Positions 5,625 to 22,230 of a DNA stretch of 64,000 nt are shown one piece after another (the stretch's first letter is position 1; the number at the start of each line of letters is the position of its first letter). Origin of the DNA: an uncultured Armatimonadetes bacterium (GTDB taxonomy: Bacteria > Armatimonadota > UBA5829 > DTJY01). The notes under the pieces are model-generated. The model searched no databases. It was not told where the DNA came from and saw nothing but the letters and a program-made list of their open reading frames with translations. The DNA lies in NCBI GenBank assembly GCA_963717145.1, contig OY970325.1:2944001-3008000 (forward strand), in the 5' to 3' direction. The position numbers and the translations under genes were made by a program.

Positions 5625-5705
5625 CAGTCTTCAGTCGTCAGTTATCAGTTATCAGTCCGGACCGATCACTGTTCACCGATCACCGATTACCGATCACTGA
5701 TAACT
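5625..5705. repeat. inverted heptamer array hairpin (CAGTTAT / ACTGATA type)
   Basis: cagttatcagttatcagt-ccgg-accgatcact...actgataact. Confidence 0.75.
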
Positions 5706-6784
5706 CAGATCCTTATCGGATACTCGCCGAACTCCAGGGTCGCTTCGACCATCGCTGTGTAGTTCGCGGCGGGCACATAATACGGCACCGTGTTGCTCGA
5801 ACCGACGCAGTAGCCGCCACCCGGCGCAACGTCCCGGATCAGGCCCTTCGTCTCCTCGATGACCTCCTCGGGCGTTCCCCGCGTGAGAGTATATCCCAGG
5901 TCGAGGTTCCCTATCAGGCAGACTCGGTCGCCGATCTTCTCCTTCAACTCGCGGATGTCCATGCCTTTGGGTTCGATCGGTTGGAGCGCGTTGAAGCCGA
6001 TGTCATCGAGCAAATCGGGCATAACCTGCCAAAGATCACCGTCGGAATGATACATATATGGGACGCCCATCTTCCGCGCAAGGTTCCCTATCCGCTTGAA
6101 CCACGGGAAGACGTGTTCTCGCAGGAAAGCCGGCGATACCATCAGCCCCTCCGTGTATGCGATGTCGTCCGATATCCAGAGAGCACCGATGTTCTCCTGC
6201 TCGGCGATCACCTCGAAGATGTCGTATATGACCTGGCCGGTCTTATTCATCATCTCCTCGACGAGTTCCGGCTCATCGACCATCTTCCAGGAGAGCGTCT
6301 CGAAGCCGCCCATGAGGCTCCATCCCTGGGTGAAGATGTCGCCCTGGTGGCCGATGAGCTTCATCCCGTCGGGGAGCAGGTCGTTCGCCTTCTGATAGAT
6401 CGAGAAGTCGACATCCTCGACATCCATCCAGGGGTAGGTCTCGAACTCCTCCATCGAGGTGATGACGCCCGCGCCCTCGGTGGCGTATCGGATCTGGACC
6501 TCGTTGTCGGTATTCGCGCTGAACTGGCCGGATGCCGAGCGGATTCCCTCCTTCGGCACGCGCTTCTCGGGGTTCCAGTCGTAGAGCGGCGTGACCTTGA
6601 GGTAGTCGTAGCCGGCCCTCTCGAAGAACTTCACGGCATCGTCGAAGCACGTCACGGGCGCGCCCATGAAGCCGGACATCACCTCGTAGCTGATGCCAAG
6701 TTCCGCGAGCGGGACTCGGTCGGGCTCACCGGCACAGGTAAGCGCGGTTAGCAGGCGTTCGAAATCGGGTTTCGGTTCGATCAT
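5705..6784 (-). CDS. uroporphyrinogen decarboxylase (UroD/MtaA-like) family protein
   Basis: EPDRVP, SDDIAYTEGLMVSP, YHSDG, IGNLD, GTPEEV, PGGGYCVGSSN. Confidence 0.85.
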   Translation of the reverse strand: MIEPKPDFERLLTALTCAGEPDRVPLAELGISYEVMSGFMGAPVTCFDDAVKFFERAGYDYLKVTPLYDWNPEKRVPKEGIRSASGQFSANTDNEVQIRYATEGAGVITSMEEFETYPWMDVEDVDFSIYQKANDLLPDGMKLIGHQGDIFTQGWSLMGGFETLSWKMVDEPELVEEMMNKTGQVIYDIFEVIAEQENIGALWISDDIAYTEGLMVSPAFLREHVFPWFKRIGNLARKMGVPYMYHSDGDLWQVMPDLLDDIGFNALQPIEPKGMDIRELKEKIGDRVCLIGNLDLGYTLTRGTPEEVIEETKGLIRDVAPGGGYCVGSSNTVPYYVPAANYTAMVEATLEFGEYPIRI

Positions 6785-6810
6785 CGTTTCCTCCAGGTCG
6801 TTGTCCCCCA

Positions 6811-6922
6811 CCGTCAGTCCTGAGTTCGCCGGTGAATGACGGCGTGTAACGAAGGACGGCCTGGGCAGTACCACAAGGCCGTCCTTCGTTACACGCCGTC
6901 ATTCACCGGCGAACTCAGGACT
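6811..6922. repeat. ~110-bp palindromic element (CCGTCAGTCCTGAG family), copy 1
   Basis: Long inverted repeat; homologous copy at 8730-8843 and a half copy at 46001-46046. Confidence 0.9.
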
Positions 6923-8702
6923 AGCGGTTCTTCTCTTTGTAAAGCCGCTCAAACTCATCCACAAATCCCGCCAGGACATCGACGCCCCCCTGCCAGAAGG
7001 CTCGGTCGCAGATGTCGATCCCAACGCGGCAAAGCATTTCTGCCGGCTTCATCGAGCCGCCCGTCCTCAGCAGGTCGATATACGTCGGAGGGAACTTGTC
7101 CCCTTCCCGCTTGTACATCGCGTAGAGCGACATCACGAGCAGCTCGCCGAACGTGTAGGCGTAGACGTAGAACGGCGAGTTGATGAAGTGCGGCACGTAC
7201 ATCCACCAGCACTTGTGCTCATCCCCAAGTTCCACCGAGTCACCGAACATCTCCTGCTGGAGTCGCTGCCAGAGTTCGCTGTACTCCTCGACCGTCAGTT
7301 CGCCCTTCTCGCGCCGTCTATTGTGGATCGCCTGCTCGAACCGGTACATCGCGGCCTGACGGAAGATGGTCGCGAAGGCGCCCTCGATCTTCTCCGCATA
7401 GAGGGCGAGCTTGTCATCGAGGTCCGCGTGCTCGATGAGCGACTCGAATACGAGCATCTCGCCGAAGGTGCTCGCGAGTTCGGCGACGGGAAGCACCGAT
7501 GAGAAGTTGAAGTAGGTCTGCTCATGTGCAAGGTCGGCATGCACCCCATGGCCCAACTCGTGGCCGAGCGTCATCACGTCGTCCATGCGGTCGAGGTAGT
7601 TCACGAGGACATACGGATGCAGGTCCGGCGTGACGTAGGAGCAGAATGCCCCACCCCGCTTGCCTTTTCTTGGTTCCGCGTCGATCCATCCGTTGGTGAA
7701 GAACTCCTCCGCCGAATCGGCGATGACAGGGCTGAACTTGCCGAATGAGGAGAGGATGATCTCCTTCGCACGGTCGAACGGCACGTTTTCCTTCGTCTCG
7801 AAGAGTGGCGCATATCGGTCGTAGTGCGTCAACTTGTCGTAGCCCAGGATCGCGCGCTTGAGGCGATAGTACCGCGCGACGAGTGAGTAGCTCTCCTGCG
7901 CGGTCTTCACGACGAGTTCGACGGTGTGCGGATCGAGTTCGTTCGAGAGATGCCTCGCCTGTTCGGGGAACTCGTACTTCCGCAGGCGGTCGTCGGTCGC
8001 CTTGTCCTGGATCAGCGTGTTGAAGATGTATGTCAGTGTTCGGGAGTTCGACATCAGGCCGTCGGTGATCGATCCCGCGGCGACTCGGCGGACCTCCCGA
8101 TCGGGTTCTCGCAGAAGCGCGAGGACTTCCGGCAGAGTGACCGACTTCCCGTCGACCGCGAACATCATGTTGGAGGTGGTCTGCTCGAACAGGCGCGTGA
8201 ACGCCCGCCGCCCGGTGTTTGCCTTCTCCTCCAGGACCTTCTCCTCGCACTCGGTCAGCCGATGCTCGCAGAAGAGTCGCTCGGCCCAGATGTAGTGCAG
8301 GTACTCCTCGAGCACCGGATCGCATACCAGTCGAGCCATCTGTTCCTCGGGGACCTCCATCAGCTCCAGCTCGAAGAACATCAGCCGGATCGTGACCTCG
8401 GAGTGGCGCTCCCGCATCTTCTGGTAGAATGCGCCGCGCGCGGGATCGCTCGTGTCCGCCGAGAAGAGCAGCGATGCGTAACTCAGCGGCTTGTCGAGTT
8501 CCTGCAGGATGATCTCGTACTCGACGATCGCGTTCCAAAGCGTCTCGGCGGTCAGATCGGGGTCATTGATCTTGCCCCGATACTGCTCGGCGAATTGATC
8601 CGCGCGCTTGAGTTGCTCCGAAAGCGTTGCCTCGATGCGCGGATCGTCGATCCCGTGATAAAGGTCACGCAAATCCCACGCCGGCGGCTTGTTCACTGTC
8701 AT
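6921..8702 (-). CDS. pepF: M3 family oligoendopeptidase F
   Basis: PAWDLRDLY, WIDAEPRKGKRGGAFC, TLGHELGHGVH (HExxH), AELASTFGE, PHFINSPFYVYAY. Confidence 0.92.
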   Translation of the reverse strand: MTVNKPPAWDLRDLYHGIDDPRIEATLSEQLKRADQFAEQYRGKINDPDLTAETLWNAIVEYEIILQELDKPLSYASLLFSADTSDPARGAFYQKMRERHSEVTIRLMFFELELMEVPEEQMARLVCDPVLEEYLHYIWAERLFCEHRLTECEEKVLEEKANTGRRAFTRLFEQTTSNMMFAVDGKSVTLPEVLALLREPDREVRRVAAGSITDGLMSNSRTLTYIFNTLIQDKATDDRLRKYEFPEQARHLSNELDPHTVELVVKTAQESYSLVARYYRLKRAILGYDKLTHYDRYAPLFETKENVPFDRAKEIILSSFGKFSPVIADSAEEFFTNGWIDAEPRKGKRGGAFCSYVTPDLHPYVLVNYLDRMDDVMTLGHELGHGVHADLAHEQTYFNFSSVLPVAELASTFGEMLVFESLIEHADLDDKLALYAEKIEGAFATIFRQAAMYRFEQAIHNRRREKGELTVEEYSELWQRLQQEMFGDSVELGDEHKCWWMYVPHFINSPFYVYAYTFGELLVMSLYAMYKREGDKFPPTYIDLLRTGGSMKPAEMLCRVGIDICDRAFWQGGVDVLAGFVDEFERLYKEKNR

Positions 8703-8861: not shown

Positions 8862-9914
8862 TTACTTCAGCACCATCTGCGCGAGATTGAGCGCGTCCGA
8901 GATGACCTCGATCGCCTGCTCCTCGCTCGTCTTGTAGCCTTCCCCGGCCGCGACCTGGCGCACGACGACCACATCCACGTCCGGCTGATCCTCGATCTCC
9001 GCGATCGAGCCGGCGAACTGCTTCTCCGCGAGTTCCTTCTGATCAGCAGCCGACTTGAGGAACCCAAGCAGGCCCCCACCCTCGCCGCCTTCGAGATACG
9101 GCGCGGCCTTCGTCTTTAGCCCAAAAGCCTTTTTCGCCAGAATCACCGCATAGGCATACGGGTGCTTCGTGCCCTGGACATCGTTCAGGGATATCTGCAC
9201 CTGCACGCCCATGAAGTCCTTCGGCGCATCCTTGAACTTGATCATCAGGCGGGCGTCGGTCGGGACGGCGCGATCGTCCTTCGCCTGCACGTACAAGCTC
9301 GGGAGGAACTCGAGTTCGGGCTGCGACTTATACCGCGTGTAGACGTCCAGCAGGTACCGCGCTTTCCTCGGCAGTTCCGGCGGCTCCCGCGCACCGAGTG
9401 ATCCGGCGAACCAGATGGGAAGGAACAGCGTGAACACGTCGAGCGCCCAGATCGGTGCGACGAACCCGCCTCGGAGCGGTGGAACGAACGCCATGCTGAG
9501 CACGCTGAACAGATCCTGCGCGCGGTCGATGAAGACGGCGATCAGGCCCGCTGAGACGCCGACGAACAGCAGGCCGAGCATCGTCATGGCACAGCCGCCG
9601 CCGGATGTCGCTCGGAAGGCGTTCGTCCGCTCGCGCCAGTTCTTTATTCTAATCGAGAGCTTCTCGATCTGCTCGAGTTCCTCGATGGTGGTGGTCGACC
9701 AGTCGCCCTTCCCGCCGACCTCCGGCTCGGTACTCTTGCTTCGGATGATGCCGAGCAGGCATCCGGCCAGAAAGACGAGCCATCCCAGGAACACGGAGAC
9801 CGTGAGTTGGATAGCGAATCCCGCCAGCAGCAGGCCCGCGATCCATCCGAGCCTCGTCCCCATCGGCATGCTCGACGCTATGGCGAATTGCAGCTTATCA
9901 GTCTTCTCAGCCAT
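8862..9914 (-). CDS. hypothetical multi-pass membrane protein
   Basis: About 350 aa with ~4 hydrophobic segments and a soluble C-terminal domain; co-oriented directly downstream of the radical SAM gene. Confidence 0.8.
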   Translation of the reverse strand: MAEKTDKLQFAIASSMPMGTRLGWIAGLLLAGFAIQLTVSVFLGWLVFLAGCLLGIIRSKSTEPEVGGKGDWSTTTIEELEQIEKLSIRIKNWRERTNAFRATSGGGCAMTMLGLLFVGVSAGLIAVFIDRAQDLFSVLSMAFVPPLRGGFVAPIWALDVFTLFLPIWFAGSLGAREPPELPRKARYLLDVYTRYKSQPELEFLPSLYVQAKDDRAVPTDARLMIKFKDAPKDFMGVQVQISLNDVQGTKHPYAYAVILAKKAFGLKTKAAPYLEGGEGGGLLGFLKSAADQKELAEKQFAGSIAEIEDQPDVDVVVVRQVAAGEGYKTSEEQAIEVISDALNLAQMVLK

Positions 9915-9928
9915 GGCAGTTCCATTTG

Positions 9929-10030
9929 GAACACAGATCACACAGATTGCAGAGGATGAATCGGATGTTTATTCATCCTCTAAGCATTCCATCTGTGTTA
10001 TCTGTGCCCCATCTGTTTCATCTGTGTTCA
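9929..10030. repeat. inverted short-repeat hairpin (ACACAGAT / ATCTGTGT) overlapping rSAM 3' end
   Basis: aacacagatcacacagat...agaggatgaat / attcatcctct...atctgtgttatctgtg. Confidence 0.75.
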
Positions 10031-11474
10031 AGAGCTCTTCGCAGCCGAAGGCGTCCCAGTACATCGGGCAGGCGCCGCTGCAGATGTCGAGATGCCCGCA
10101 CGAGCGGCACTCCTCAGGGACGTATTCCCTGTCCCGATAGTACAGCGCGCGCTCCGAGTTCCAGACATCTTCAAAGCTCTGATTGAGCAGATTCCCGACC
10201 GGATCGGTGAGGCTCGAACACGGGAGCACGTCCCCATTCGGCGCGACGCTCAGGAGTCCGTCGCACGCGGCGCACGCCTTCCCGCCGAGCCCGCCGGCGA
10301 TCGGGTTGAACATGCAGTAGGGCGTCGGCGAGTACCACATGAACTCGATGCCGACTTCCCTCGCCGTCCGCTTCACGGACTGCACCATCGGGCCGATCTC
10401 ACTGTACCGCAAGGCGGTCTCACCGGTGCCGGCCGTCCCGCAGGGCATCACCATGTTCATCGAGAGGCGCGGGAGTCCGAGCGACTTCGCCAGCGCCGGC
10501 ATCGCCTCGATGTGCTCCCGGTTCAGGCGGTTGATCGTCGTGTGCGTGTGGACGTAGATCCCCTGCCCCTTCAACGCCTCGATTCCGTGCATCGTCCGAT
10601 CGAACGAGCCCGGGACGCCGGTCAGGTCGTCGTGCACCTCGACGTTCGGGCCTTCGACACTGACCTGCGCGCTCCTCAGCCCGGACCGCCTCAACTGGCG
10701 GGCGAGCGAGTCCGTCAGGAGCGTGCCGTTCGTGATCAGGTTCACTCGCAGTCCGATACGCACAGCGGAACGTATCAGCTTCGGCAGGTCGTCGCGCATT
10801 GTCGGTTCCCCACCGGTGAAGCTCACGCTCGGGACCTCGGCCTCGTTCCGAATCCTGCGCAGGACGACCTCGACCTCCTCGGCGGTCATCTGACCTTCAC
10901 CCCCGACCGCTCTCCCTTCAGAAGGGCGATGGGGGCTGGCATCTCCCCTCGCCCTTCTGAAGGGAGAGCGGTCGGGGGTGAGGGTGCTCCGAGTGCTATC
11001 CTTCCTGCAACTGCATCCCGCGTAGCAGAACCGGCACGCGAGGTTGCACCGGTAGGTCACCGCAATCTCGCTCAGCACCGGAAGCAGGCTCCCCCGCCGG
11101 CTGAACGGGACCTGCTCGACCGCGCGCCTGCCGTGTCCCTCCCCGAGGCATCCCATTACGAGCGCTCGGATGTCGCAGAAGAAGTCGGACACCTCGCGGA
11201 CCCGTTCCTCGTTCTGGTCTTCCTTTGACATCACCCGATCGAGCACGCGGCGGATTGGCTCTCCTGCGAGAGTCCGGCTGAGCAGGTGGATGCCCGACTC
11301 GTTGAGATGATACGCCTGGTTCGGCATCAGGATCAGCAGGCTGTCTCGCTTCCGAACGAACACGTGCGGCCGGATGTTCTTCACGAATCCGTCGATCCAC
11401 CGGAGATCGGACGGAGCGCCCGTGTCCTCACGGGGACCGCGCCTACCATGCCCGTGAGGACACGGGCGCTCCAT
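9969..11474 (-). CDS. radical SAM/SPASM peptide-maturase-like protein with N-terminal RRE (PqqD-like) domain
   Basis: N-terminal LLILMPNQAYHLNESGIHLL...EVSDFF is PqqD-like; CNLACRFC; FTGGEP; LITNGTLL; SPASM CAAC...GDVLPC...CRSCGHLDICSGAC. Confidence 0.9.
   Translation of the reverse strand: MERPCPHGHGRRGPREDTGAPSDLRWIDGFVKNIRPHVFVRKRDSLLILMPNQAYHLNESGIHLLSRTLAGEPIRRVLDRVMSKEDQNEERVREVSDFFCDIRALVMGCLGEGHGRRAVEQVPFSRRGSLLPVLSEIAVTYRCNLACRFCYAGCSCRKDSTRSTLTPDRSPFRRARGDASPHRPSEGRAVGGEGQMTAEEVEVVLRRIRNEAEVPSVSFTGGEPTMRDDLPKLIRSAVRIGLRVNLITNGTLLTDSLARQLRRSGLRSAQVSVEGPNVEVHDDLTGVPGSFDRTMHGIEALKGQGIYVHTHTTINRLNREHIEAMPALAKSLGLPRLSMNMVMPCGTAGTGETALRYSEIGPMVQSVKRTAREVGIEFMWYSPTPYCMFNPIAGGLGGKACAACDGLLSVAPNGDVLPCSSLTDPVGNLLNQSFEDVWNSERALYYRDREYVPEECRSCGHLDICSGACPMYWDAFGCEELLNTDETDGAQITQMECLEDE
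10893..10985. repeat. palindromic element (CCCTCACCCC..GGGAGAG family) in frame inside the rSAM gene
   Basis: 93-bp near-perfect inverted repeat, related to the intergenic copy at 55314-55431. Confidence 0.9.
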
Positions 11475-11479
11475 GGTTC

Positions 11480-13114
11480 TCAATGTGCACCTCCGCTGAC
11501 GCAGGCCGAGTGGCAGGCGGAATGGCAGGCGGAATGACACGCCGAGTGGCACGCCGAATGACACGCATCATGGCAGGCGTCGTGGCACGCGGTATGGACG
11601 AAGCACGCGGAATGGCACGCGTCCGATCTGATCGATGCCGCCGATGCCATTCCCTTTTCGGGCATCTGCTTGCCGATGCCCTTCTCGACATCGTTCTCCT
11701 GTCCCTGCGATGCCCCGTAGAAATAGTGCGGATAGTAGCTCGAGTAGCTGTGCCCCCAGGAGTCATATGTCCCGACGCCCGTCCGCTGAGCCACCTCGAA
11801 CTGCGCCTTGATCTGGTTGCGGTAGAACTCCTTTGTCGCGTCGAGGTCGCAGTCCCAGCACTTCGTCTGCACGTTGTCGGCGATGTGGTCGATGATCGCC
11901 TTGAGTTCGCCGTCGTCGAGCTTGCCCTCGTCCCGGACCGCGTTCCACATCATGTCCTCATAGAGCTTATCCGGCAGCACCCCGATCGGATAGAGCCGCT
12001 CGACCCGCAGCGGATCGTTCGAGATGATCTTGAAGAGCCCCCTGCGCTCCAATTCGAGCACGATGGCGGCGAGGATCTTGTTCGCCGGGATATCGAGCAG
12101 GAACGCGGCCTCGATGGGATGGAGGTCGCCGACCTTGCCCTTCTGCCGGAAGCTGCTAACCTTGATCTTCGGCGGCACCCAGTCCGTCCGGTCCCAACGG
12201 ATGCCGTCCATCTCCTCCGCCGCGGCCGAGTAATCGGAGTACTTCTTCTTAACGAGAGCCACCGCCACCCAGACCAGTCCGATCGCGAGCAGGAACGCGA
12301 TCACCAACCGGCTCGGGTCTTGTTGAATCCGAACGTGGGGCGATTCACCGGGTTGACTCGGCTCCTGACCGCCGGGAATGAGCGGCTCGGACGCCTTCAG
12401 TTTCAGGTTCGGGAAGAACTTGGCGATCACGTAGGTCTGGATGCGCATATGGTACTGAGTCGGCACATCCTTCTTGTGGAAGCGGACGGTCAGCCAGCTC
12501 TTGCCCTGATACGGCTGCCCGTAGTAGCTGATGAGGTACTGCTTGTTGACGAACTCCTCGGTGCGGAATCCGACATCTTTCAGGCGCTGATCGGTAACCT
12601 TCTCGCCGACGACCTCGATCGGGTAGTGGAGGTAGACCGTCTCATGCTCCAGCGGCTGATCCCACTGGACGGGGGCCCAATTGAAGACGACGAGCTTCCC
12701 GAACTCGCTCTCGGTGTAGTCGAGCATCCCCGCGCCCGCGAGGTCTGTCGTGTAGAGGACGATGTAGGTCACCTCACCGGGACCCGCCGCCGCGCCGTTT
12801 GCCAGAACGATATCGTACTTCCCGCTCTCCACGGGGCTGATGGACAGCCCATACTTCCGCCCGCGCGCATCGAAGGCGTACGACTTGTCGCTCGAGAACG
12901 TCGGATAGGCGCGGTCGAAGCCCTCGAAGTAGAAGCCGTGCATCTGCCCGCTGTTCACCTGCCACCGGATCTTGTAGACGACATCGGCGAACCCGTTCCC
13001 GTGCGGCGAGACGTCGACCTCGACCCACTTCATCCGGGCGTCAGCGGCCCGCGCCGGCGACAGGATGCCGAGCAGGAGGACCATGGCTATCAGATATGGT
13101 ATCAGTCTGCGCAT
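11480..13114 (-). CDS. signal-peptide single-pass membrane protein (DUF2207-like layout) with C-terminal (HxAC)n Cys/His repeat tail
   Basis: Signal peptide, ~240-aa exported domain, TM LVIAFLLAIGLVWVAVALVKKK, cytoplasmic helical region, then DACHSACFVHTACHDACHDAC(HSAC)5VSGGAH. Confidence 0.85.
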   Translation of the reverse strand: MRRLIPYLIAMVLLLGILSPARAADARMKWVEVDVSPHGNGFADVVYKIRWQVNSGQMHGFYFEGFDRAYPTFSSDKSYAFDARGRKYGLSISPVESGKYDIVLANGAAAGPGEVTYIVLYTTDLAGAGMLDYTESEFGKLVVFNWAPVQWDQPLEHETVYLHYPIEVVGEKVTDQRLKDVGFRTEEFVNKQYLISYYGQPYQGKSWLTVRFHKKDVPTQYHMRIQTYVIAKFFPNLKLKASEPLIPGGQEPSQPGESPHVRIQQDPSRLVIAFLLAIGLVWVAVALVKKKYSDYSAAAEEMDGIRWDRTDWVPPKIKVSSFRQKGKVGDLHPIEAAFLLDIPANKILAAIVLELERRGLFKIISNDPLRVERLYPIGVLPDKLYEDMMWNAVRDEGKLDDGELKAIIDHIADNVQTKCWDCDLDATKEFYRNQIKAQFEVAQRTGVGTYDSWGHSYSSYYPHYFYGASQGQENDVEKGIGKQMPEKGMASAASIRSDACHSACFVHTACHDACHDACHSACHSACHSACHSACHSACVSGGAH

Positions 13115-13174: not shown

Positions 13175-13564
13175 TCACTCCTTCGCGCTTTCCGTCCGCG
13201 CCCGGAGCAGGTCCGCCTGAGAGAGGATGTACTGCGCAAAGTTGCCCTTCGCCTCGGCCCACTCGCTCTCGTCGGGGAACGTGCGGACGATCCCCTGCCA
13301 GATGACCTCATACGCCCGCTCGAGGCAGACCTTCCCGTCGCCCGAACCGGTGTACTCGAAGACCGCCTTGATGTCCGTCGGCCTGAAGACCGGCGTCGGC
13401 CCGGAGTACACCTCGGTCGCCGCCCCGAGGAACTTCACGCCGATCTCCTGCAACACATCGATGTGCTCCCTGATCGCCGTCAGTACCGTCGCGATCGAGT
13501 AATCCGCCGATGAGAAGCGGATCTCGAGCGACTTGTCCTTGATCTCGCCGAATGGCATGTTCAT
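13175..13564 (-). CDS. hypothetical protein, first gene of the rSAM operon
   Basis: 129-aa ORF with strong AGGAGG RBS and GC3-rich codon usage. Confidence 0.75.
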   Translation of the reverse strand: MNMPFGEIKDKSLEIRFSSADYSIATVLTAIREHIDVLQEIGVKFLGAATEVYSGPTPVFRPTDIKAVFEYTGSGDGKVCLERAYEVIWQGIVRTFPDESEWAEAKGNFAQYILSQADLLRARTESAKE

Positions 13565-13739: not shown

Positions 13740-15548
13740 ATGAATCAGGATTCCGGCGACGGCATCACAACCTACGGGACCGGGCACGGCTCGTTCCGCG
13801 CTCGACTGGGCGAGTACAAACCGCTCGTCGACGCGGCACTCGACTCATGGGACCGCCAACGGTTCAGCCAGTTGATGTGGGCGAAGGACCCCGCCCCGTG
13901 GAAGCAGCCCGAGGGCACGCCGGAGATCATCGACCGCCTGGGATGGCTCACCGTCGTCGACACGATGCTGGGCCGCGTCGATGAACTGACCTCGTTCGCG
14001 GAGGAGATCAAGAACGCAGGCTTCCGGTCGGTCGTCGTGCTCGGCATGGGAGGAAGCAGCCTCAGCCCGGAGGTCTCCTACAAGGTTTTCGGCGCGGCCG
14101 ACGGCTTCCCGAAGCTCTTCGTGCTCGACAGCACGGTGCCGGCCGCAATCCGAACCCTCGAGGCGCAGATCGATCTCGGCTCAACACTCTTCATCGTCTC
14201 GAGCAAGTCCGGCAAGACGATCGAGACGAAATCCGCCCATAGGCATTTCCTCGCCAAGTCGTCGCCCGAGCGGTTCATCGCGATCACCGATCCCGGCAGT
14301 TGGCTTGCGGGAGAGGCCGAGACGAAGGGATTCCGTCGAGCATTCCTCAATATGCCGGAGATCGGCGGAAGGTATTCGGCGCTTTCGTACTTCGGGCTCG
14401 TCCCGGCGGCGCTGATCGGCGTCGATATCGAGGGACTCCTCGGGAGTGCGCGAAGGATGATGGAGGCATGCGGACCCGAAGTCCCCGCTCGCAATAACCC
14501 CGGTGTCGCACTCGGAGCGATCGTGGCCGAACTCGCGCTCCGGGGCCGCGACAAGATGACGATGCTTTTCTCTCCTCGATTGGAGAGTTTCGGCGCGTGG
14601 GTGGAGCAACTCGTTGCCGAATCAACCGGCAAGGATGGCCGTGGAGTCCTCCCGGTCGAGATGGAGACTCCCTTCGGACTGGAATCGCATAGCCCCGACC
14701 GCCTCCTCGTCTATACCAAGCTCAAAGGCGCCGGGGACGATCTTGGAAGAGCCCTGCAGCGAATGTTCGAATTCGCCGGGCATCCGGGTCTCAGCATCGA
14801 GATGGACAACTTGCTCGACCTTGGCGGCCAATACTTCCTTTGGGAGTTCGCAACCGCAGTCGCAAGTGCTCTCCTTGGTGTCAATGCTTTCAATCAGCCG
14901 GATGTGGCCACCGCCAAAAAGAAGACGCAGGAATTCCTCGACGAGCACAAGGCGAAGGGGGAGTTCGGGCCGCTGACGAAGCTCGCGGACGATGACAATC
15001 TGATCCTCTACGCCGACGATGAGACCAAAGCGACACTCGATCTCCTCCGCGTGACCGGCCCATATCCTGATGCGACGCCCGAATCGGTGCTACATGCGCA
15101 TCTCCAGCGCCTCGAGCCGGGGAACTATATCGCGTTGCTGGCGTTCATGGAGCGCACGCCCGATGCCGAGATCATCCTCGGCACGATTCGGGCCAAGCTG
15201 GCCAACCGCTACAAGGCCGCGACAACGATCGGATACGGCCCGAGGTTTCTCCACTCCACAGGCCAGTTCCACAAGGGCGGACCGAACAACGGGCTTTTCA
15301 TTCAGATCACCGCACGCGACCCCGTAGACGTCGAGATCCCCGGCGAGAAGTACACATTCGCGGTTCTGAAGGACGCCCAGGCGCTCGGCGACTTCACCAC
15401 CCTGCGCGAGAAGGGCCGCCGCATCATCCGCATACACCTCAGGCGTGACGTCAGCGCCGGCCTCAAGTCGTTGTACGGCATCACAGCCCGCCTCTGCGGG
15501 CCGGCGCGCCCAAGCACCATCACACAAGAAGGAACAGATCGCACGTGA
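13740..15548 (+). CDS. pgi: glucose-6-phosphate isomerase (resembles the PGI half of Tal-Pgi fusions)
   Basis: DRLGWL, VLGMGGSSLSP, SSKSGKTIET, IGGRYSALS, EQLVAESTGKDG, GPRFLHSTGQFHKGGP. Confidence 0.9.
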   Translation: MNQDSGDGITTYGTGHGSFRARLGEYKPLVDAALDSWDRQRFSQLMWAKDPAPWKQPEGTPEIIDRLGWLTVVDTMLGRVDELTSFAEEIKNAGFRSVVVLGMGGSSLSPEVSYKVFGAADGFPKLFVLDSTVPAAIRTLEAQIDLGSTLFIVSSKSGKTIETKSAHRHFLAKSSPERFIAITDPGSWLAGEAETKGFRRAFLNMPEIGGRYSALSYFGLVPAALIGVDIEGLLGSARRMMEACGPEVPARNNPGVALGAIVAELALRGRDKMTMLFSPRLESFGAWVEQLVAESTGKDGRGVLPVEMETPFGLESHSPDRLLVYTKLKGAGDDLGRALQRMFEFAGHPGLSIEMDNLLDLGGQYFLWEFATAVASALLGVNAFNQPDVATAKKKTQEFLDEHKAKGEFGPLTKLADDDNLILYADDETKATLDLLRVTGPYPDATPESVLHAHLQRLEPGNYIALLAFMERTPDAEIILGTIRAKLANRYKAATTIGYGPRFLHSTGQFHKGGPNNGLFIQITARDPVDVEIPGEKYTFAVLKDAQALGDFTTLREKGRRIIRIHLRRDVSAGLKSLYGITARLCGPARPSTITQEGTDRT

Positions 15549-18500
15549 GACTATCGGACGAACTGATCGGCACGAAATGCGATATCGCGCCATTCGGGCG
15601 ACTCAGCTACTGGACGGGGAGCGACCCCCTGACGCTGACCCGGTGCGACGCCCCGGACCTGCAGCCCGTCAACCGGGAGGAACAAGGCGGCAGGCATCTG
15701 GGCATCGAGTGGGAGTATCCGCGCCAGTTCTCCAGTGTGGTGATCCGGTTCGACGAGGGGCGAGCGCCTTGCCCGAAGGACGTCCAACTCCAGTACTGGG
15801 TGCACAATTGGCCCTCCGACTTCGCGGGTGGCTGGACGGCGGTGGATGATCCCTACAACGGCAAATGGGTGACGGCGAACGGCGAGTTTCGCGTTGACGG
15901 CAGCACCTGGACCTTCATGTTCGACCCCCTCGACATCACCGAGATCAGTCGCGCAACCGACTTCGCGGTCACATATCGGCAGTCGTACCGCGTGCGACTG
16001 CTCTTCAAGGGCGAATCGGAGCCGGGGATCGCCGGCCTCGAGGTCTACTCCGACTCGACCTGGCGGGAGGCGGCCCTCCGAATCGAATTCGGGCTCAGGG
16101 ATGGCGGCTTGACGTACTCGGGGCCGATCGAGGTCCACAACGGGTACATCCTTTCGACGGATGATTCCGATCCGAGGTCGGTTGCCGTGAACGTCCTGTA
16201 TGCGGAGACCTGCAACTATGGCGTCGAACGGAGCGCGCCGACTCCACCGGACCGGACGATCATTACCGTGGCCGGATTCTCGTTCCTGGTGACGGACGCT
16301 CTGGATGGCGGCATCGACGTCCCCGACCACGGGGTGTTCGTCAGCAACCGTAGGGGAGGCCTTCAACGGCCTCCAGATCGGGAGGCCGTTGAAGGCCTCC
16401 CCTACGGTCAATCGCTTCCCATCTATGACCGGATTCTCACGGAGCCGGAGCAGACGTTCGAGCGCGCTCGTCGGGAGATCCCTCAACTCATCAAGACGCG
16501 ACAGGGCGCATGGGGGCGTTACCTCCCGATCGGATGCGATGCCAACCGCCAGGAGTTCGCCGTGCGGTTCAATGGCGAGATCTTCGCGGACAAGCATGAA
16601 CTCAAACTGGTGGGCAGGGATCCGGCACGGCTTCTATGGCCCGGTCCGGCCATCCACTTCAAGTTCCCGACCGGCGATCCGCCCGACTTCCGCGAGCGCG
16701 AAGACGGCACCGAGCAGTCGGCGCTCAACGGCTACCTGCCGATCTACACCTCGACCTGGAAGGATCGCGAGTTTGCCTACGAGATGACCGCCTTCTCCGC
16801 ACTGCTTCACGAATCCCCCTGGGAGGAGGAGAAGAAGCGCGGTGACGAGCCGATGGTCGCGCTCTCCCGGATCAAGATCAGAAACACGACCGAGGAGAAA
16901 CGCACAGCCCGGTTCTGGATGGTCATAGAACAGCCCGAAAAGCTTAACACAGACGAGCAGGGATTCGTCTATGCCACAGGTCGAGCAAGGGATGACAGCG
17001 TGCCGGACTCAGCCGTGCAGAAGCGCTGGACCGTGGAGGAGTATCCATCCCGCCGACTCCGAGCGCAGGTTCGGACACAGGGCCGAGGGGAACTCTCGGC
17101 AGTCGCATGCACCTATCAGCCGTTCGAGGTCACGAGCATCCCGAACGCCGTCGCATACGACATCGAACTCGAACCAAGGTCGATGCACGGGATAGAACTG
17201 CTCATCCCATTCATCACCTCCACCGGCGATGAGGGCCGCGACGCCGTTGCCGGTCTCGACTACGATGCCAGACTCGCCGAGATGGCGGCGTACTGGGAAT
17301 CGCTCATCGGCTCGGGCGCGAGGATCGAAGTGCCGCAGGAGGTCATCACCGACTACGTGAAGGCGACACTGCCGCATATCGCGATCACCGCCGACAAGGA
17401 CATCAAGAGCGGCTACTACATGCTGCCCGCGGGGACGTATGCCTACCCGGTGTGCATGAACGAGGCCTGCCATCAGATCCGCGCGCTCGATTACCAGGGC
17501 CATCACGAGCGCGCGCAGACGTACCTGCGTCCATTCCACGAACTGCAGGGCACGCGCGGGCTCCACGGCCGGTTTGCATCGAAGGAAGGCGTCTTCCACG
17601 GGCTGCGCGTGGACGATGAGACCGACTACCAGGCGTTCAACTACAATCTGGATCACGGATACGTCACTTTCGCGCTCTGCGAGCACTACAAGTTCACGCG
17701 TGACAAGGATTGGCTGCTGAGCATCGCTCCGAGCCTCGTCGCCGCATGTGATTTCGTGACCCGCGAGCGTCAGGCGACTATGCAGGCCGGCGCATGGGAA
17801 TACGGACTCCTACCGCCGGGCCACCTGGAGGACAACCCCGAGTGGCTCTACTGGTATGCGGTCAATGCCTACTGCTACCGAGGGATGCAGGCGGTCACGG
17901 AGGTGCTCGCGGACATCGGTCATCCGGAGGTCGAACGGCTCAGGCGTGACACCGATGCGTATCGAGACGATATCCGCCGCTCGATGCGTAAGGGAGCAGA
18001 GTTGTCGCCGGTGACAAAGCTCTCGGGCGGAACCTATACACCGTTTGTCCCGACGAGGGCCCAACTCCGTGGTCGCGACATCGGCTGGATCCGCGACTCG
18101 CTCTACGGACCGGCGCACGCGATCGAGTGCGGTGTCTTCGATCCGTTGGAGGATATCTGCACCTGGATGCTGAGAGACCTCGAGGACAACGTCTTCGTCT
18201 CGCGGTACCGGGGCCGGCAGGTCGATCTCGAGCGCTTCTGGTTCAGCCAGGGAGGGAACACCATCCAGTCGGGCCTGCTGCCGATGGTGATGGTTTACCT
18301 CAAGCGCGATCAGCCCGAGCACGCGATCAGAGCGCTGTTCAACTCCATTGCGCAGAACCTGTACGAGGATGTGCGCTGCTTCACGGAGCATCCGGTCGCG
18401 GCGTTCGGCCTCGGAGCGGGACCGTTCTACAAGACGCCGGACGAGAACTGCTGGATCAACTGGCTCCGGAACGTTCTTCTGATGGAGAAAGGCAACGACG

Positions 18501-18823
18501 GCCTCATCATCGCCCCCGGGATGCCGCGCGAGTGGCTCGCGGACGGCCAGGAGGTCAACCTTCAGGGCATGGCGACGTATTACGGGCCGATGAGCTATCG
18601 GATGTGCGCGGAGCCGGGACGGATCACGGCGATGGTCGAGCCGCCCCGCCGGAATCCACCCTCGTTCCTCGAGGTCAGATTCCGCCATCCGGAGCGCCTG
18701 CCGATGAAGGGCGTGAGCGTCAACGGTCAGCCGCATCGGACATTCGATCCGACGACGGAGATCGTCCGTTTCGACAACGCCGCCGATCTCCCGGATCTGC
18801 TGGAGATCATAGCCGAGTACTGA
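15545..18823 (+). CDS. large putative glycoside hydrolase/phosphorylase (six-hairpin-like C-terminal domain), paralog 1
   Basis: 1092 aa with GLLPPGHLEDN, WYAVNAYCYRGM, LIIAPGMPREWL, ATYYGPMSY, typical of (alpha/alpha)6 glycosidase-like proteins; adjacent to a GH116. Confidence 0.65.
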   Translation: MRLSDELIGTKCDIAPFGRLSYWTGSDPLTLTRCDAPDLQPVNREEQGGRHLGIEWEYPRQFSSVVIRFDEGRAPCPKDVQLQYWVHNWPSDFAGGWTAVDDPYNGKWVTANGEFRVDGSTWTFMFDPLDITEISRATDFAVTYRQSYRVRLLFKGESEPGIAGLEVYSDSTWREAALRIEFGLRDGGLTYSGPIEVHNGYILSTDDSDPRSVAVNVLYAETCNYGVERSAPTPPDRTIITVAGFSFLVTDALDGGIDVPDHGVFVSNRRGGLQRPPDREAVEGLPYGQSLPIYDRILTEPEQTFERARREIPQLIKTRQGAWGRYLPIGCDANRQEFAVRFNGEIFADKHELKLVGRDPARLLWPGPAIHFKFPTGDPPDFREREDGTEQSALNGYLPIYTSTWKDREFAYEMTAFSALLHESPWEEEKKRGDEPMVALSRIKIRNTTEEKRTARFWMVIEQPEKLNTDEQGFVYATGRARDDSVPDSAVQKRWTVEEYPSRRLRAQVRTQGRGELSAVACTYQPFEVTSIPNAVAYDIELEPRSMHGIELLIPFITSTGDEGRDAVAGLDYDARLAEMAAYWESLIGSGARIEVPQEVITDYVKATLPHIAITADKDIKSGYYMLPAGTYAYPVCMNEACHQIRALDYQGHHERAQTYLRPFHELQGTRGLHGRFASKEGVFHGLRVDDETDYQAFNYNLDHGYVTFALCEHYKFTRDKDWLLSIAPSLVAACDFVTRERQATMQAGAWEYGLLPPGHLEDNPEWLYWYAVNAYCYRGMQAVTEVLADIGHPEVERLRRDTDAYRDDIRRSMRKGAELSPVTKLSGGTYTPFVPTRAQLRGRDIGWIRDSLYGPAHAIECGVFDPLEDICTWMLRDLEDNVFVSRYRGRQVDLERFWFSQGGNTIQSGLLPMVMVYLKRDQPEHAIRALFNSIAQNLYEDVRCFTEHPVAAFGLGAGPFYKTPDENCWINWLRNVLLMEKGNDGLIIAPGMPREWLADGQEVNLQGMATYYGPMSYRMCAEPGRITAMVEPPRRNPPSFLEVRFRHPERLPMKGVSVNGQPHRTFDPTTEIVRFDNAADLPDLLEIIAEY
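16347..16408. repeat. GTAG-type REP-like palindrome inside CDS
   Basis: accgtaggggaggccttcaacggcctcc-agatcg-ggaggccgttgaaggcctcccctacggt. Confidence 0.92.
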
Positions 18824-18968
18824 TGATGACATGTAGGGGCGAAGCATTGGCCGATCGGACTCCGCCGACGTTCGGCAGCAGTCGTGAGTGCTGATGATGA
18901 CATGTAGGGGCGAAGCATTGGCCGATCGGACTGCGCCGACCTTCGGCAACAATCGCCAATGCTTCGCC
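18821..18968. repeat. 71-bp tandem duplication containing a GTAGGGGCGAAGCATT REP-like element
   Basis: tgatgatgacatgtaggggcgaagcattggccgatcggact at 18821 and 18892; the second copy is closed by aatgcttcgccc. Confidence 0.85.
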
Positions 18969-18996
18969 CGGCTTGAGTAGGAGCAGGAGTATAAGT

Positions 18997-21900
18997 ATGA
19001 GTAAGAGCGTGGACATCGTGCCGTTCGGCAGGATATCGTACTGGACCGGGAGCGATCGGCTCACCATCGAGCGCCATGACGCGGACGGATGGACGCCCGT
19101 CGATGTCCCCGAGCAGGGCGGGCCGCACGTCGGCGTCGAATGGGAGCAGACGCGCCGGTTTTCGTCGATTATTGCGCATTTCGCCGACGATGCCCCCGAT
19201 CCGAGCCAGGTGCGGGTTCAGTATTGGCATCAGAACTGGCCGGAGCCCTGGATCGGCGGATGGACCGCGGTCGATGATCCCTTCAACGGCAAGTGGGTGA
19301 CAGCCAACGGGGAGTTCAAGATCGAGGGCGATACCTGGACCTTCACGTTCGATCCACTCGACATCACCGAGCTGGGTTCCGCTGAGGACTTCGCGGTGAC
19401 CTATCGTCAGGCGCTCAAGGTGCGACTGCTCTTCAAGGGCTGCTCCCCGAACATCGAATCGCTCGAAATCCGATCCGGCTCCGTCTGGAAGGAAGCCGAC
19501 CTCCGCATCGAATTCGGCCTCTCCGACGAGGGTCTGACCTACGGGGGCTCGGCCGTAGTCTCGGACGGCAGCGTGCTCGATCTCGATGACGGCAATCCCA
19601 AGAACGTCCGCCTCAAGGTGCTCTATGCGGACGGTGTCCCGACCGATCGCACGATCGTGACGATCAAATGCGTCGAGAGAAGCTTCTCGTTCCTGGTGTC
19701 GGACGCGCTCGACGGAGTGCACATCCCGGACCACGGCGTGTTCGTCAGCGAGGAAGGGAGAGGCGGCTATGCGGCATGGAGCGCGAACCGTCCGGCGGAT
19801 GTGCCGCGCCCGATCTTCGACCGCGTCATCGATGAGCCGGAACAGAGCTACGAGCGCGCGAGCGCCGAAGTCCCACAACTGATCAAGATCAAGCAGGACA
19901 AGTTCGGCAGATATGTACCGATCGGCTGCGACGCCAACCGCCAGGAGTTCGCGCTCCGGTTCAACGGCGATATCTTCGCCGACAAGCATGAACTCAAACT
20001 GGTAGGCAGAGATCCGGCAAGACTCCTCTGGCCCGGATCGAACATATGGTTCAAGTTTCCGACCGGCGATCCGCCCGACTTCCGAGAGCGAGAGGACGGC
20101 ACGGAGCAGTCGGCGCAGAACGACTACCTCCCGATCTATACATCCACGTGGAAGGACCGGGAGTTCGCCTACGAGATGACCGCCTTCTCAGCTCTCCTGC
20201 ACGAATCCCCCTGGGAGGAAGAGAAGAAGCGCGGGGACGAGCCGATGGTGGCTTTGTCGAGGATCAAGATCAGGAACACGACCGAGGAGAAACGCACCGC
20301 CCGGTTCTGGATTGTGATAGAACAGCCGGAAAAGCTGGACACAGATTCCAAGGGTTTCGTCTACGCAGTCGGCCGCGCAAGAGACGACAGCGTGCCCGAC
20401 TCGGCCCTCCAGAAGCGGTGGACCGTGGAGCAGTATCCATCCCGCAGACTCCGAGCGCAGGTTCGGACACAGGGCCGAGGCGAACTGAGGGCGGTCGCAT
20501 GCACATACCAACCGCTCGATGTCACGAGCATCCCGAATGCCGTCGCATACGACATCGAACTCGAACCGAGATCGAGCCATCAGCTCGAGCTGTTCATCCC
20601 ATTCATCACCTTCACCGGCGATGAGGGCCGCGATGCCGTTGCCGCTCTCGACTACGATGCCAAGCTTGCCGAGATGACGGAGTACTGGCAGGCGCAGATC
20701 GACGCCGGCGCGAAGATCCAGGTTCCAGAGCAGCTTCTGAATGATTTCAACAAGGCCAACGTCGCCCACATCGCCATCACCGCCGACAGGGACATCGACA
20801 CCGGCCTGTACATGCTCGGCGCGGGGACGTGGCGATACCAGATATACGGCACCGAAACCGTCGACCAGTGCCGTTCGCTCGACCTCAGGGGCTACCACGA
20901 CCGGGCGCGGAAGTACCTGATGCCGTTCGTCGAATGCCAGGGCACGCGCCGGATGGATGGACGCTTTGCGACACAAGAAGGCGCGCTCCACGGGGTTCGC
21001 GTGAACGATTCGTACGACTACCAGGTCGGCGATTACAGCCTCGATCACGGCACGGTACTCTGGTGGCTCGGCGAGCACTACCTGTTCACCCGCGACTCGG
21101 ACTGGCTCACCTCCATCGCGGCTAACCTGATCGCCGCATGCGATTACGTCACCCGCGAGCGCCAGGCGTCGATGCGGACGAACGCGTCCGGCGAGAAGGT
21201 CTGGGAGTACGGGCTGCTTCCACCATGTCATCTGGACGACAACCCGGAGTGGCAATACTGGTACATCGTCAACGCGCTCGCATTCCGGGGCATGACATCC
21301 GCCGCCCGCGCGCTCGGCGATATCGCGCACCCGGAGGCCGCTCGATTGGCATCCGAGGCACAGGCGTATGGCGATGATATCCGACGGTCGCTGGCCAGGT
21401 CGATCGACCTGTCGCCGGTCGTTCGGCTCGCGGACGGCACGTATGTCCCACACACGCCGGTCAGATGCCGTCTCCAGGGCCGGGATGTCGGATGGATTCG
21501 GGAGTCGCTCTACGGCCCGCTGTTCAACGTCGACTGCGGCCTGATCGATCTCGATGCGCCCGAAGTGACATGGATGCAGAAGGACTACGAGGACAACATC
21601 TTCGTCACCCGGTCGCTGGGAAGGCAGGTCGATCTGGAGCGCTTCTGGTTCAGCCAGGGTGGGCACACGATTCAGTCGAACCTTCTGCCGAACACGCTGG
21701 TCTACGCCGCCAGAGATCAGATCAGGCACGCCCTGAGGGCCTTCTACAACAGCATGGCGGCGAATCTCTATGCCGACGTGCGCTGCTTCACGGAGCATCC
21801 GGTCGCCGCTTACGGCCTCGGCGCGGGCCCGCTCTACAAGACGCCCGATGAGTCCGCGTTCCTGACCTGGTTCCGCTACCTGCTTCTGACCGAGCGGGGC

Positions 21901-22230
21901 AACGATCTCATCATCGCGCCCGGGACTCCGAGGGCCTGGATGCAGGACGGCAAGGAGATTGTGGTCGAGGAGATGCCGACCCACTTCGGCCCGGTGAGTT
22001 ACCGGATCGTGTCCGAGGCGGCGAAAGGTCGAGTCGGCGTCGAGATCACTCCTCCCAGACGGAACCCGCCCGAGCAGATTGTCGTGCGGCTCAGGTATAT
22101 CCGGTGGCTGAAGCACAAGTCGGTGACGGTGAACGGCTCGCCGCACAACATAAAGAATGAGTACAGCCGGCACACGATCACGCTCGAAGGCCCGTTCCCG
22201 GAGCGGATCGAAATACTCGTCGAATATTGA
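18997..22230 (+). CDS. large putative glycoside hydrolase/phosphorylase, paralog 2
   Basis: Colinear with 15545-18823 over its full length. Confidence 0.65.
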   Translation: MSKSVDIVPFGRISYWTGSDRLTIERHDADGWTPVDVPEQGGPHVGVEWEQTRRFSSIIAHFADDAPDPSQVRVQYWHQNWPEPWIGGWTAVDDPFNGKWVTANGEFKIEGDTWTFTFDPLDITELGSAEDFAVTYRQALKVRLLFKGCSPNIESLEIRSGSVWKEADLRIEFGLSDEGLTYGGSAVVSDGSVLDLDDGNPKNVRLKVLYADGVPTDRTIVTIKCVERSFSFLVSDALDGVHIPDHGVFVSEEGRGGYAAWSANRPADVPRPIFDRVIDEPEQSYERASAEVPQLIKIKQDKFGRYVPIGCDANRQEFALRFNGDIFADKHELKLVGRDPARLLWPGSNIWFKFPTGDPPDFREREDGTEQSAQNDYLPIYTSTWKDREFAYEMTAFSALLHESPWEEEKKRGDEPMVALSRIKIRNTTEEKRTARFWIVIEQPEKLDTDSKGFVYAVGRARDDSVPDSALQKRWTVEQYPSRRLRAQVRTQGRGELRAVACTYQPLDVTSIPNAVAYDIELEPRSSHQLELFIPFITFTGDEGRDAVAALDYDAKLAEMTEYWQAQIDAGAKIQVPEQLLNDFNKANVAHIAITADRDIDTGLYMLGAGTWRYQIYGTETVDQCRSLDLRGYHDRARKYLMPFVECQGTRRMDGRFATQEGALHGVRVNDSYDYQVGDYSLDHGTVLWWLGEHYLFTRDSDWLTSIAANLIAACDYVTRERQASMRTNASGEKVWEYGLLPPCHLDDNPEWQYWYIVNALAFRGMTSAARALGDIAHPEAARLASEAQAYGDDIRRSLARSIDLSPVVRLADGTYVPHTPVRCRLQGRDVGWIRESLYGPLFNVDCGLIDLDAPEVTWMQKDYEDNIFVTRSLGRQVDLERFWFSQGGHTIQSNLLPNTLVYAARDQIRHALRAFYNSMAANLYADVRCFTEHPVAAYGLGAGPLYKTPDESAFLTWFRYLLLTERGNDLIIAPGTPRAWMQDGKEIVVEEMPTHFGPVSYRIVSEAAKGRVGVEITPPRRNPPEQIVVRLRYIRWLKHKSVTVNGSPHNIKNEYSRHTITLEGPFPERIEILVEY

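Follow-up and report, generated by a model that had tools for sequence, protein, structure and literature searches.

Radical S-adenosylmethionine (SAM) enzymes that carry a SPASM domain are known chiefly for small modified peptides. QhpD acts on a protein subunit. To our knowledge, the enzymatic crosslinking of full-size proteins is confined to a handful of examples, QHNDH and CrpA (2026). Among the closest described systems is that of CrpA and CrpC. [quoted passage not shown] A comparable arrangement is found in a 64,000-nucleotide stretch of contig OY970325.1 from an uncultured Armatimonadetes bacterium, referred to below as the window. P0001, a protein translated from 11480-13114 of the minus strand, ends in a run of A-C-H-x repeats, the tail, and its gene is followed by genes for a radical SAM/SPASM enzyme and a second membrane protein. 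Most likely this tail forms the substrate part of a widespread three-gene protein-maturation cassette, kin in kind to the known systems of radical SAM enzymes and Cys repeats; this assignment is drawn from sequence comparison. The genes and the tail are located as follows.

11480..13114, minus strand: P0001 gene, 544-residue tail-bearing protein (translation of the open reading frame and AlphaFold2 model)
11483..11620, minus strand: (A-C-H-x)n tail, likely core or substrate region (codon table)
9969..11474, minus strand: radical SAM/SPASM enzyme, 501 residues from the ATG at 11474 (Pfam and an alignment of 42 sequences)
8862..9941, minus strand: third cassette gene, 359-residue membrane protein, with a homolog in 78 of 80 related loci
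13175..13564, minus strand: upstream 129-residue soluble protein, accessory, with a homolog directly upstream in 16 of the 80 loci

The last 46 residues of P0001 read ACHS-ACFVHT-ACHD-ACHD-(ACHS)x5-ACVSGGAH in the codon table and contain 10 Cys and 10 His. The reading frame of 544 residues terminates in ...SDACHSACFVHTACHDACHDACHSACHSACHSACHSACHSACVSGGAH*, with the stop codon at 11480-11482, and nine H-[S/T/D]-A-C units span 11614 to 11501. The first-pass annotation had placed the tail at 11480-11635, an interval that comprises the stop codon, the tail and five upstream residues, and had described nine such units, a VSGGAH end and mixed synonymous codons, all of which the codon table bears out. 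Cys is encoded by TGC (8) and TGT (2), His by CAT (7) and CAC (3), Ala by GCG (6), GCC (4) and GCA (1), and Ser by TCC (3), TCG (3) and AGC (1). Because the codons vary synonymously between the units, only an imperfect 12-nucleotide period, with 70-78% matches, is detected in the tail DNA by Tandem Repeats Finder. Recent slippage, or a repeat maintained at the DNA level, is rejected as the origin of the tail on account of the synonymous codon differences between units and between species, and the earlier argument against slippage is upheld. Nor is the tail a chance run of low complexity. It is unique in the genome, there being no second comparable stretch in any other frame of the 5.37 Mb, and a tail of this kind is present at every one of 80 related loci.

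The related loci were obtained by scanning 185,579 species genomes, which gave 378 matching stretches; the 80 loci referred to throughout are the best 80 of these 378. Their source labels are Armatimonadota, Planctomycetota, Elusimicrobiota, Omnitrophota, Hydrogenedentota, Spirochaetota, Nitrospiraceae, Acidobacteriota, WOR-3, TA06 and others, about a dozen labels at the phylum level. The terminal pattern (ACHx)n-ACVS[GS]..[HR] is present in every one of them. Statistics were taken over 80 tails, those of 79 loci and that of the window, locus L075 being left out for a run of N. The four-residue Cys-to-Cys intervals in these tails number 636. The residue following Cys is His in 612 of the units (96%), Tyr in 17 and Phe in 7; the next, x, is Ser in 483, Asp in 89, Gly in 45, Asn in 11 and another residue in 8; the third is Ala in 619 (97%) and Gly in 17. 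The number of H-x-A-C units per tail has a narrow spread, with 8 units in 41 tails, 9 in 24, 7 in 13 and 5 in 2. The last eight residues are nearly invariant, reading ACVSGGAH in 34 of the 80 tails and close variants of it elsewhere.

Over the last 36 codons, comparison with ten relatives of 32-74% overall identity gives 15-22 synonymous and 0-2 non-synonymous codon differences. By this measure the tail is under strong purifying selection that acts on the peptide rather than on the DNA, as had been proposed from the window sequence alone. A word-indexed search returned 20 homologs, ten of which are full-length and all tailed, with the ending (ACH[DSGN])n-ACVS[GS]G.H; one (P0016, 533 residues) has no tail and nine are fragments. 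A profile search of 1.84 billion representatives matched 754 proteins with an E of 1e-3 or less, 400 of them with 1e-10 or less. The long proteins among them are mostly tailed, and some, possibly truncated, end without a tail. Divergent tails hold the Cys spacing and partly shed His, as in P0115 (SCDSCHSSC) and P0128 (ACHSACVHDAC). The first-pass annotation had looked to the homologs to tell which residue, His or Cys, stays invariant. In the core family both are, whereas farther out Cys stays and His does not. The tail is the most conserved part of this membrane protein and its presumed substrate region. The Gly-Gly codons of the VSGGAH end read GGAGGT at 11489-11494 of the window, 14 nucleotides upstream of the radical SAM ATG at 11474, so that at the window locus part of the conservation of the tail end could serve as the ribosome-binding site of the next gene.

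The protein that bears the tail appears to be a single-pass, DUF2207-like membrane protein. Its AlphaFold2 model, built on 68 sequences, has a mean predicted local distance difference test score (pLDDT) of 83. The predicted layout consists of a signal-peptide-like N-terminus, a beta-sandwich at about 25-230, one long transmembrane helix within 267-303, a probably cytoplasmic helical/winged domain at about 320-490 and then the tail, the pLDDT of which is about 40. The N-domain superposes on ribophorin I/Ost1 (Z 14.8, root-mean-square deviation 3.0-3.1 over 180-183 residues; Foldseek E 4e-7), and the beta-sandwich superposes also on the N-domain of M1 aminopeptidases. For the cytoplasmic domain only weak fold likeness was seen, to GOLPH3/Vps74 (Z 6.4 and 5.0). 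Pfam and NCBIfam scans of P0001 itself gave no match. Among its relatives, PF27846 is precomputed on P0002, P0003 and P0010, and PF09972 (DUF2207) matches weakly, at E 7e-6 to 1e-3 and 16.8-26.8 bits against a gathering score of 24.4, which only P0007 (26.8) passes. In the ESM Atlas, the clusters closest to the C-terminal part of P0001 are those of DUF2207/DUF2207_C (0.90-0.94). The signal peptide, the single transmembrane helix and the Lys/Arg-rich stretch (KKK...) that follows this helix would place the tail in the cytoplasm, the compartment in which radical SAM enzymes act.

The gene for the tail-bearing protein is never found alone among the 80 loci. A homolog of the radical SAM enzyme, 39-79% identical to the product of 9969-11474, is the next gene on the same strand in all 80, and a homolog of 8862-9941 follows the radical SAM gene in 78, both misses being at contig ends. 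The median distance from the stop of the tail gene to the codon of a conserved Trp near the N-terminus of the enzyme is 39 nucleotides, so that the two genes abut or overlap. Clusters of other genes are common to at most 14 of the 80 loci each. No conserved protease, exporter or transporter was found beside the cassette across the 80 loci, and the release of a RiPP natural product is rejected on this ground. The first-pass annotation had considered modification of the tail by a radical SAM enzyme, and the constant neighbour of the tail gene is indeed a gene for a radical SAM/SPASM enzyme, one that bears a putative recognition domain. The AlphaFold2 model of the third protein (mean pLDDT 91) shows four long membrane helices and a C-terminal alpha/beta domain at about 185-359, whose likeness to type III secretion chaperones and to YbjN-type proteins is weak (E 0.037 in Foldseek; Z 6.1-6.9 in VIA, too low to count by itself). 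Neither this protein (8862-9941) nor the 129-residue upstream protein (13175-13564) has a Pfam or NCBIfam match. Directly downstream of the cassette in the window are genes for a URO-D-like protein (5705-6874, minus strand) and an M3 oligoendopeptidase F (6921-8702, minus strand), which are not conserved beside the cassette in other loci.

By its domains the downstream enzyme belongs to the radical SAM/SPASM superfamily. It matches PF04055 (E 1.4e-27, 97.3 bits, cut-off 29.5) and PF13186 (E 9.8e-11, 42.2 bits, cut-off 21.5). In the 42 aligned family members the CxxxCxxC motif is invariant (C143, C147 and C150), and so are seven Cys of the SPASM region (C387, C401, C419, C456, C459, C465 and C469). 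PqqD (PF05402) is matched in 11 of the 42 members, with a best E of 6.3e-6, and the window's own enzyme has no match to it at E <= 1; a conserved N-terminal block, W26...N58...G71, aligns across all 42. On this likeness the enzyme would be of the peptide-modifying type, with a putative PqqD-like recognition domain. The best NCBIfam models across the 42 members are AhbD (best E 1.3e-52), NirJ2 (9.5e-46), TIGR04053, a pseudo-SAM family and PqqE (7.9e-40). All scores of the enzyme are far under the cut-offs, at 136 bits against 500 for AhbD (TIGR04545) and 110 against 381 for PqqE, and the MftC and PqqE models give 89-110 bits on it. The nearest solved structures are PqqE (E 1.2e-13) and SkfB (about 1e-13), and CteB, SuiB and anSME are among the other solved relatives. 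The models of CrpC and of the SCIFF, QhpD and CXXX-repeat systems gave the following results.

CrpC model TIGR04463 on the radical SAM enzyme (G000:2954062-2954889): 39.7 bits, below the cut-off of 525
SCIFF maturase TIGR03974 on the radical SAM enzyme: 19.7 bits, below the cut-off of 425
QhpD TIGR03906 on the radical SAM enzyme: no match at E <= 0.001 (cut-off 453)
CXXX-repeat maturase TIGR04115 on the radical SAM enzyme: no match at E <= 0.001 (cut-off 350)
CXXX target TIGR04117 on the tail: 15.7 bits, E 0.053, below the cut-off of 50 and still the best match of this model in the genome

With scores under all curated cut-offs, the system shares the design of Cys-repeat/radical SAM pairs and is a member of no curated family. 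A co-fold of the enzyme, with three [4Fe-4S] clusters and SAM, and residues 476-544 of P0001 scored 0.01 against a mark of 0.32; it was run without controls and carries no weight on the question of binding. Outside the window, at G000:C1:2648065-2649078, the genome has another radical SAM gene of the SPASM type; with the models of the SCIFF maturase, of QhpD and of the CXXX-repeat maturase it reaches 130-150 bits, each time under the cut-off.

More distant forms came from 301 sampled genomes of the phylum to which the window belongs. Of these genomes 46 had a match, which was canonical in 15, divergent in 6 and weak, limited to the cytoplasmic domain, in 25. Four of the six divergent loci were fetched. 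All four encode ACHS tails with occasional Val inserts, and the radical SAM gene is adjacent in three. A frame of 53 residues at L082:6103-6264 (genome G118), of the form (RCHS)n, also matched the tail profile (E 8e-6). It is rejected as a relative of the tail, as it looks like a 12-nucleotide DNA repeat in an arginine-rich frame and no radical SAM gene was seen nearby.

The weak matches led to a sister system, represented by the 21 of the 25 loci that were fetched (L087-L107). Its proteins have about 600 residues, are DUF2207-like and end in Gn-CACACAG-CACACACA-GGGR in all 21 loci, with no His in the tail. A radical SAM-like gene is present in 20 of the 21 regions, with 20-32% identity to that of the window by tblastn; 17 of these genes keep CxxxCxxC (27-32% identity), and those of L088, L090 and L097 are without it (20-30%). 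The operon of L093 (L093:3395-10278) encodes, in this order, a radical SAM/SPASM enzyme, a pseudo-enzyme that has the SPASM domain only, the (CA)n protein, a class I methyltransferase and a CreD-like protein. The sister system was matched by no NCBIfam model, and no paper on it was found. Judged from the two sets of tails, both systems have periodic Cys, flanked by Ala or other small residues, at the C-terminus of a DUF2207-type membrane protein, and His is special to the ACHx branch.

These results are consistent with an explanation in which the tail is the built-in substrate of the adjacent radical SAM/SPASM enzyme, becomes thioether-linked and is kept as a product on the membrane protein. 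Taken as a whole, this explanation stands about the same chance of being right as of being wrong. Its first part, that the tail is a substrate of the enzyme, is probable, because of the gene linkage, the putative recognition domain, the probable cytoplasmic location of the tail and the CrpC/CrpA precedent. Cys-to-carbon thioether chemistry ranks first among the chemistries considered and is put forward tentatively, at well short of an even chance. In the proposed mechanism the PqqD-like domain would bind the conserved segment right before the repeats, [FY]-S-x-F-x-x-S-x-x-C..., and the radical SAM core would proceed along the periodic Cys residues. Each Cys sulfur would enter a thioether of the sactionine or ranthionine type, with a carbon of neighbouring Ala or of residue x as its acceptor. 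The product of the third gene, with its four transmembrane segments and its chaperone-like cytoplasmic domain, would be an obligatory partner. The modified tail would remain on the membrane protein, since the cassette is without a protease or an exporter, and the outcome would be a stapled ladder with the His side chains free, for example for metal binding. Cys-centred thioethers are favoured because Cys survives in the divergent and sister tails and the sister (Cys-Ala)n tails are without His. The first-pass annotation had listed Cys thioethers, His-x-Ala/Ser cyclophanes and a His/Cys metal-binding module as options, with no choice of mechanism among them. The evidence tilts to Cys-centred chemistry and away from a His-x-Ala cyclophane.

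Several points weigh against the thioether explanation. Judged by its model scores, the enzyme is not close to the known thioether-synthase families (the CrpC, SCIFF, QhpD and CXXX models). Its best models are AhbD, NirJ2, TIGR04053 and PqqE, and we know of no thioether made by any of these. Since the x position is Gly in 45 of the 636 units, not every unit can offer a beta-carbon at x as acceptor. His may join the reaction, given that His and Ala of the core family are as conserved as Cys. The pLDDT of about 40 for the tail in AlphaFold2 rules out a structural argument, and in genome G240, which carries the divergent form, the radical SAM gene is on a different contig from the tail gene.

The alternative that survives best is an unmodified tail that binds metal or an Fe-S cluster, with a Cys2His2 site per unit pair, while the radical SAM enzyme acts on another target or has in the tail a scaffold or an arm for delivery. 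Cys and His are equal in number in the tail (10 and 10 in the window), His follows Cys in 96% of the units, and the period of four would set Cys and His in adjacent stripes of a helix. The nearest models, AhbD and NirJ, work on small cofactors and not on peptides, and metal binding is likewise suspected by the CrpA authors for their Cys-rich protein (PMC13692751). The enzyme family, however, carries a putative PqqD-like peptide-recognition domain, and at all 80 loci its gene adjoins the tail gene, for the most part only a few codons away from the stop. Ala at the third position after Cys in 97% of the units would be unexpected for a plain metal-binding tail, and the His-free (CA)n tails of the sister system fit Cys2His2 sites poorly. 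On balance an unmodified metal module seems unlikely, though it is a contender to be taken seriously.

Triceptide maturases act on His motifs, and a crosslink centred on His could take the form of a triceptide-like cyclophane from the imidazole of His to the beta-carbon of Ala in H-x-A, or of a dynobactin-like His N-C link. The H-x-A motif is as strict as Cys (His in 612 and Ala in 619 of 636 units), and the enzyme has a weak likeness to the models of His-Xaa-Ser enzymes (HxsC4 87.5 bits; HxsC best E 3.4e-25). The bit scores of HxsC4 (87.5 against 500) and DynA (70.8 against 450) are nevertheless far under the cut-offs, the divergent tail of P0115 sheds His while it holds the Cys spacing, and the sister system has no His at all, so that a His-centred link is given a low probability.

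SPASM enzymes also perform epimerisation, formylglycine- or dehydroalanine-type chemistry and MftC-type chemistry, and the Cys residues might be changed by a radical reaction that leaves no crosslink: C-alpha epimerisation, conversion to formylglycine or dehydroalanine, or MftC-like C-terminal chemistry on the invariant ACVSGGxH end. Such a change would agree with the near invariance of the last eight residues, with the presence of anSME and PqqE among the closest solved structures and with the 89-110 bits of the MftC and PqqE models; these scores, however, are at the generic SPASM level and under the cut-offs, no specific pointer to any one of the reactions was seen, and the chance of this alternative is slight. 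Heme c-like attachment, in which an AhbD-like enzyme would couple a tetrapyrrole to Cys pairs with His as axial ligands, is suggested by the reading of CHSACH as CX3CH with two Cys and two His per two units, and by AhbD and NirJ2 as the top models for all 42 family members, yet it is disfavoured to the point of being barely credible, as a search for HemB (PF00490) was positive for 11 of 14 control genomes and for the genome of the window but for none of the five carrier genomes searched (four of them titled chromosomes, three WOR-3 and one Omnitrophota), so that endogenous tetrapyrrole is no general requirement, and as the tail is probably cytoplasmic, the enzyme has a putative RRE and the AhbD score is 136 bits against a cut-off of 500.

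The substrate explanation can be carried further, to a stapled ladder anchored on the membrane protein that would serve there as a RiPP-like cofactor within the protein, such as a series of His/Cys sites for metal or Fe-S. Its crosslink would be of a so far undescribed kind (for example a radical-made, lanthionine-like Cys-Ala link, or Cys-His). The system and its (Cys-Ala)n sisters would then make up a superfamily of DUF2207-type membrane proteins with cytoplasmic tails, each matured by a SPASM enzyme dedicated to it. This extension is speculative and, as it stands, doubtful.

Two palindromic insertions in the radical SAM gene are peculiar to this genome.

11413..11472, no strand assigned: perfect 22-bp inverted repeat with a 16-nucleotide loop, on the first codons of the radical SAM gene, pairing the UG of the AUG
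10893..10985, no strand assigned: palindrome of 46+46 nucleotides, an in-frame insert of about 40 residues just after the CxxxCxxC of the enzyme

The RNA of the first repeat folds with -71.5 kcal/mol (z -5.8). The closest relative, L001, is without the radical SAM codons that the repeat covers, and the repeat has the look of a local insertion. Five further copies of its arm, with 0-2 mismatches, are present in the genome, so that it resembles a small mobile palindrome; translation of the enzyme may be damped by it. The second insert is present only in the window's protein and is without counterpart in the 41 other aligned sequences; the strand opposite the palindrome encodes nearly the same peptide. 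Elsewhere in the window, two tandem paralogous reading frames of closely similar sequence are found on the plus strand (15545-18823 and 18973-22230; 1092 and 1085 residues), the first of which has no Pfam match. The pair (15545-22230) is flanked by short repeated elements that encode ...SDRPMLRPYMSSS... in the list of open reading frames.

No paper was found on the tail strings or on the cassette in a literature search whose range did not include supplementary Dataset 1 of PMC13692751, which concerns related clusters. The search likewise returned no paper that ties DUF2207 to radical SAM enzymes, and none on CXXX-repeat radical SAM systems, on TIGR04115/TIGR04117 or on ACGX in the radical SAM sense, the sole hit for TIGR04115 being an unrelated paper on the pig microbiome. 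The cassette is self-contained, with three genes, and is widespread under about a dozen phylum-level labels, mostly in uncultured bacteria. The samples listed for the window's genome were DNA samples with a small share of it, and no RNA sample was among them. Its chemistry, once solved, would give a function to one branch of DUF2207, would possibly add a new type of crosslink and would supply a simple, repetitive four-residue substrate for studying enzyme processivity.

Compared with known systems, the enzyme resembles AhbD, NirJ2 and PqqE in that these are the top hidden Markov models for all 42 members and PqqE is the closest solved structure. AhbD and NirJ act on tetrapyrroles and are not known to have an RRE. 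The scores are far under the equivalog cut-offs, and five carrier genomes are without HemB. The likeness of P0001 to DUF2207 proteins (PF09972, PF20990) consists of weak N-domain hits in relatives and the cluster proximity of the C-terminal part, P0001 itself having no Pfam match; an ordinary DUF2207 protein is reported to be linked to stress tolerance in S. mutans (PMC10457818). With the maturation of sacti- and ranthipeptides (SCIFF/CteB, PapB/freyrasin, SkfB) and with QhpD/QhpC, the system shares a SPASM enzyme; in the known cases such enzymes have recognition domains, of which a putative one is present here, and join a Cys sulfur to a nearby carbon. Unlike sacti- and ranthipeptide systems, the window cassette has no leader-plus-short-core peptide, no protease and no exporter. 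The CXXX-repeat systems (TIGR04115 maturase, TIGR04117 Syntroph_Cxxx target) have Cys at every fourth residue, a tandem repeat and an adjacent radical SAM gene, as here, but the window repeat is borne on a 544-residue membrane protein, and both models stay under their cut-offs.

CrpA/CrpC of Methanococcus voltae (TIGR04463) is alike in having a radical SAM/SPASM enzyme, RRE-bearing in CrpC and putatively so here, beside a full-size protein with a C-terminal periodic Cys repeat, in having as its product, a predicted one in the window system, a modified protein and not a released peptide, and in having a third co-encoded protein (PMC13692751). The window system differs in its enzyme (39.7 against 525 bits with the CrpC model), in its presumed substrate, a DUF2207-type membrane protein, and in its invariant His, and the unit of its repeat is four residues long (A-C-H-x), whereas that of CrpA has 17.

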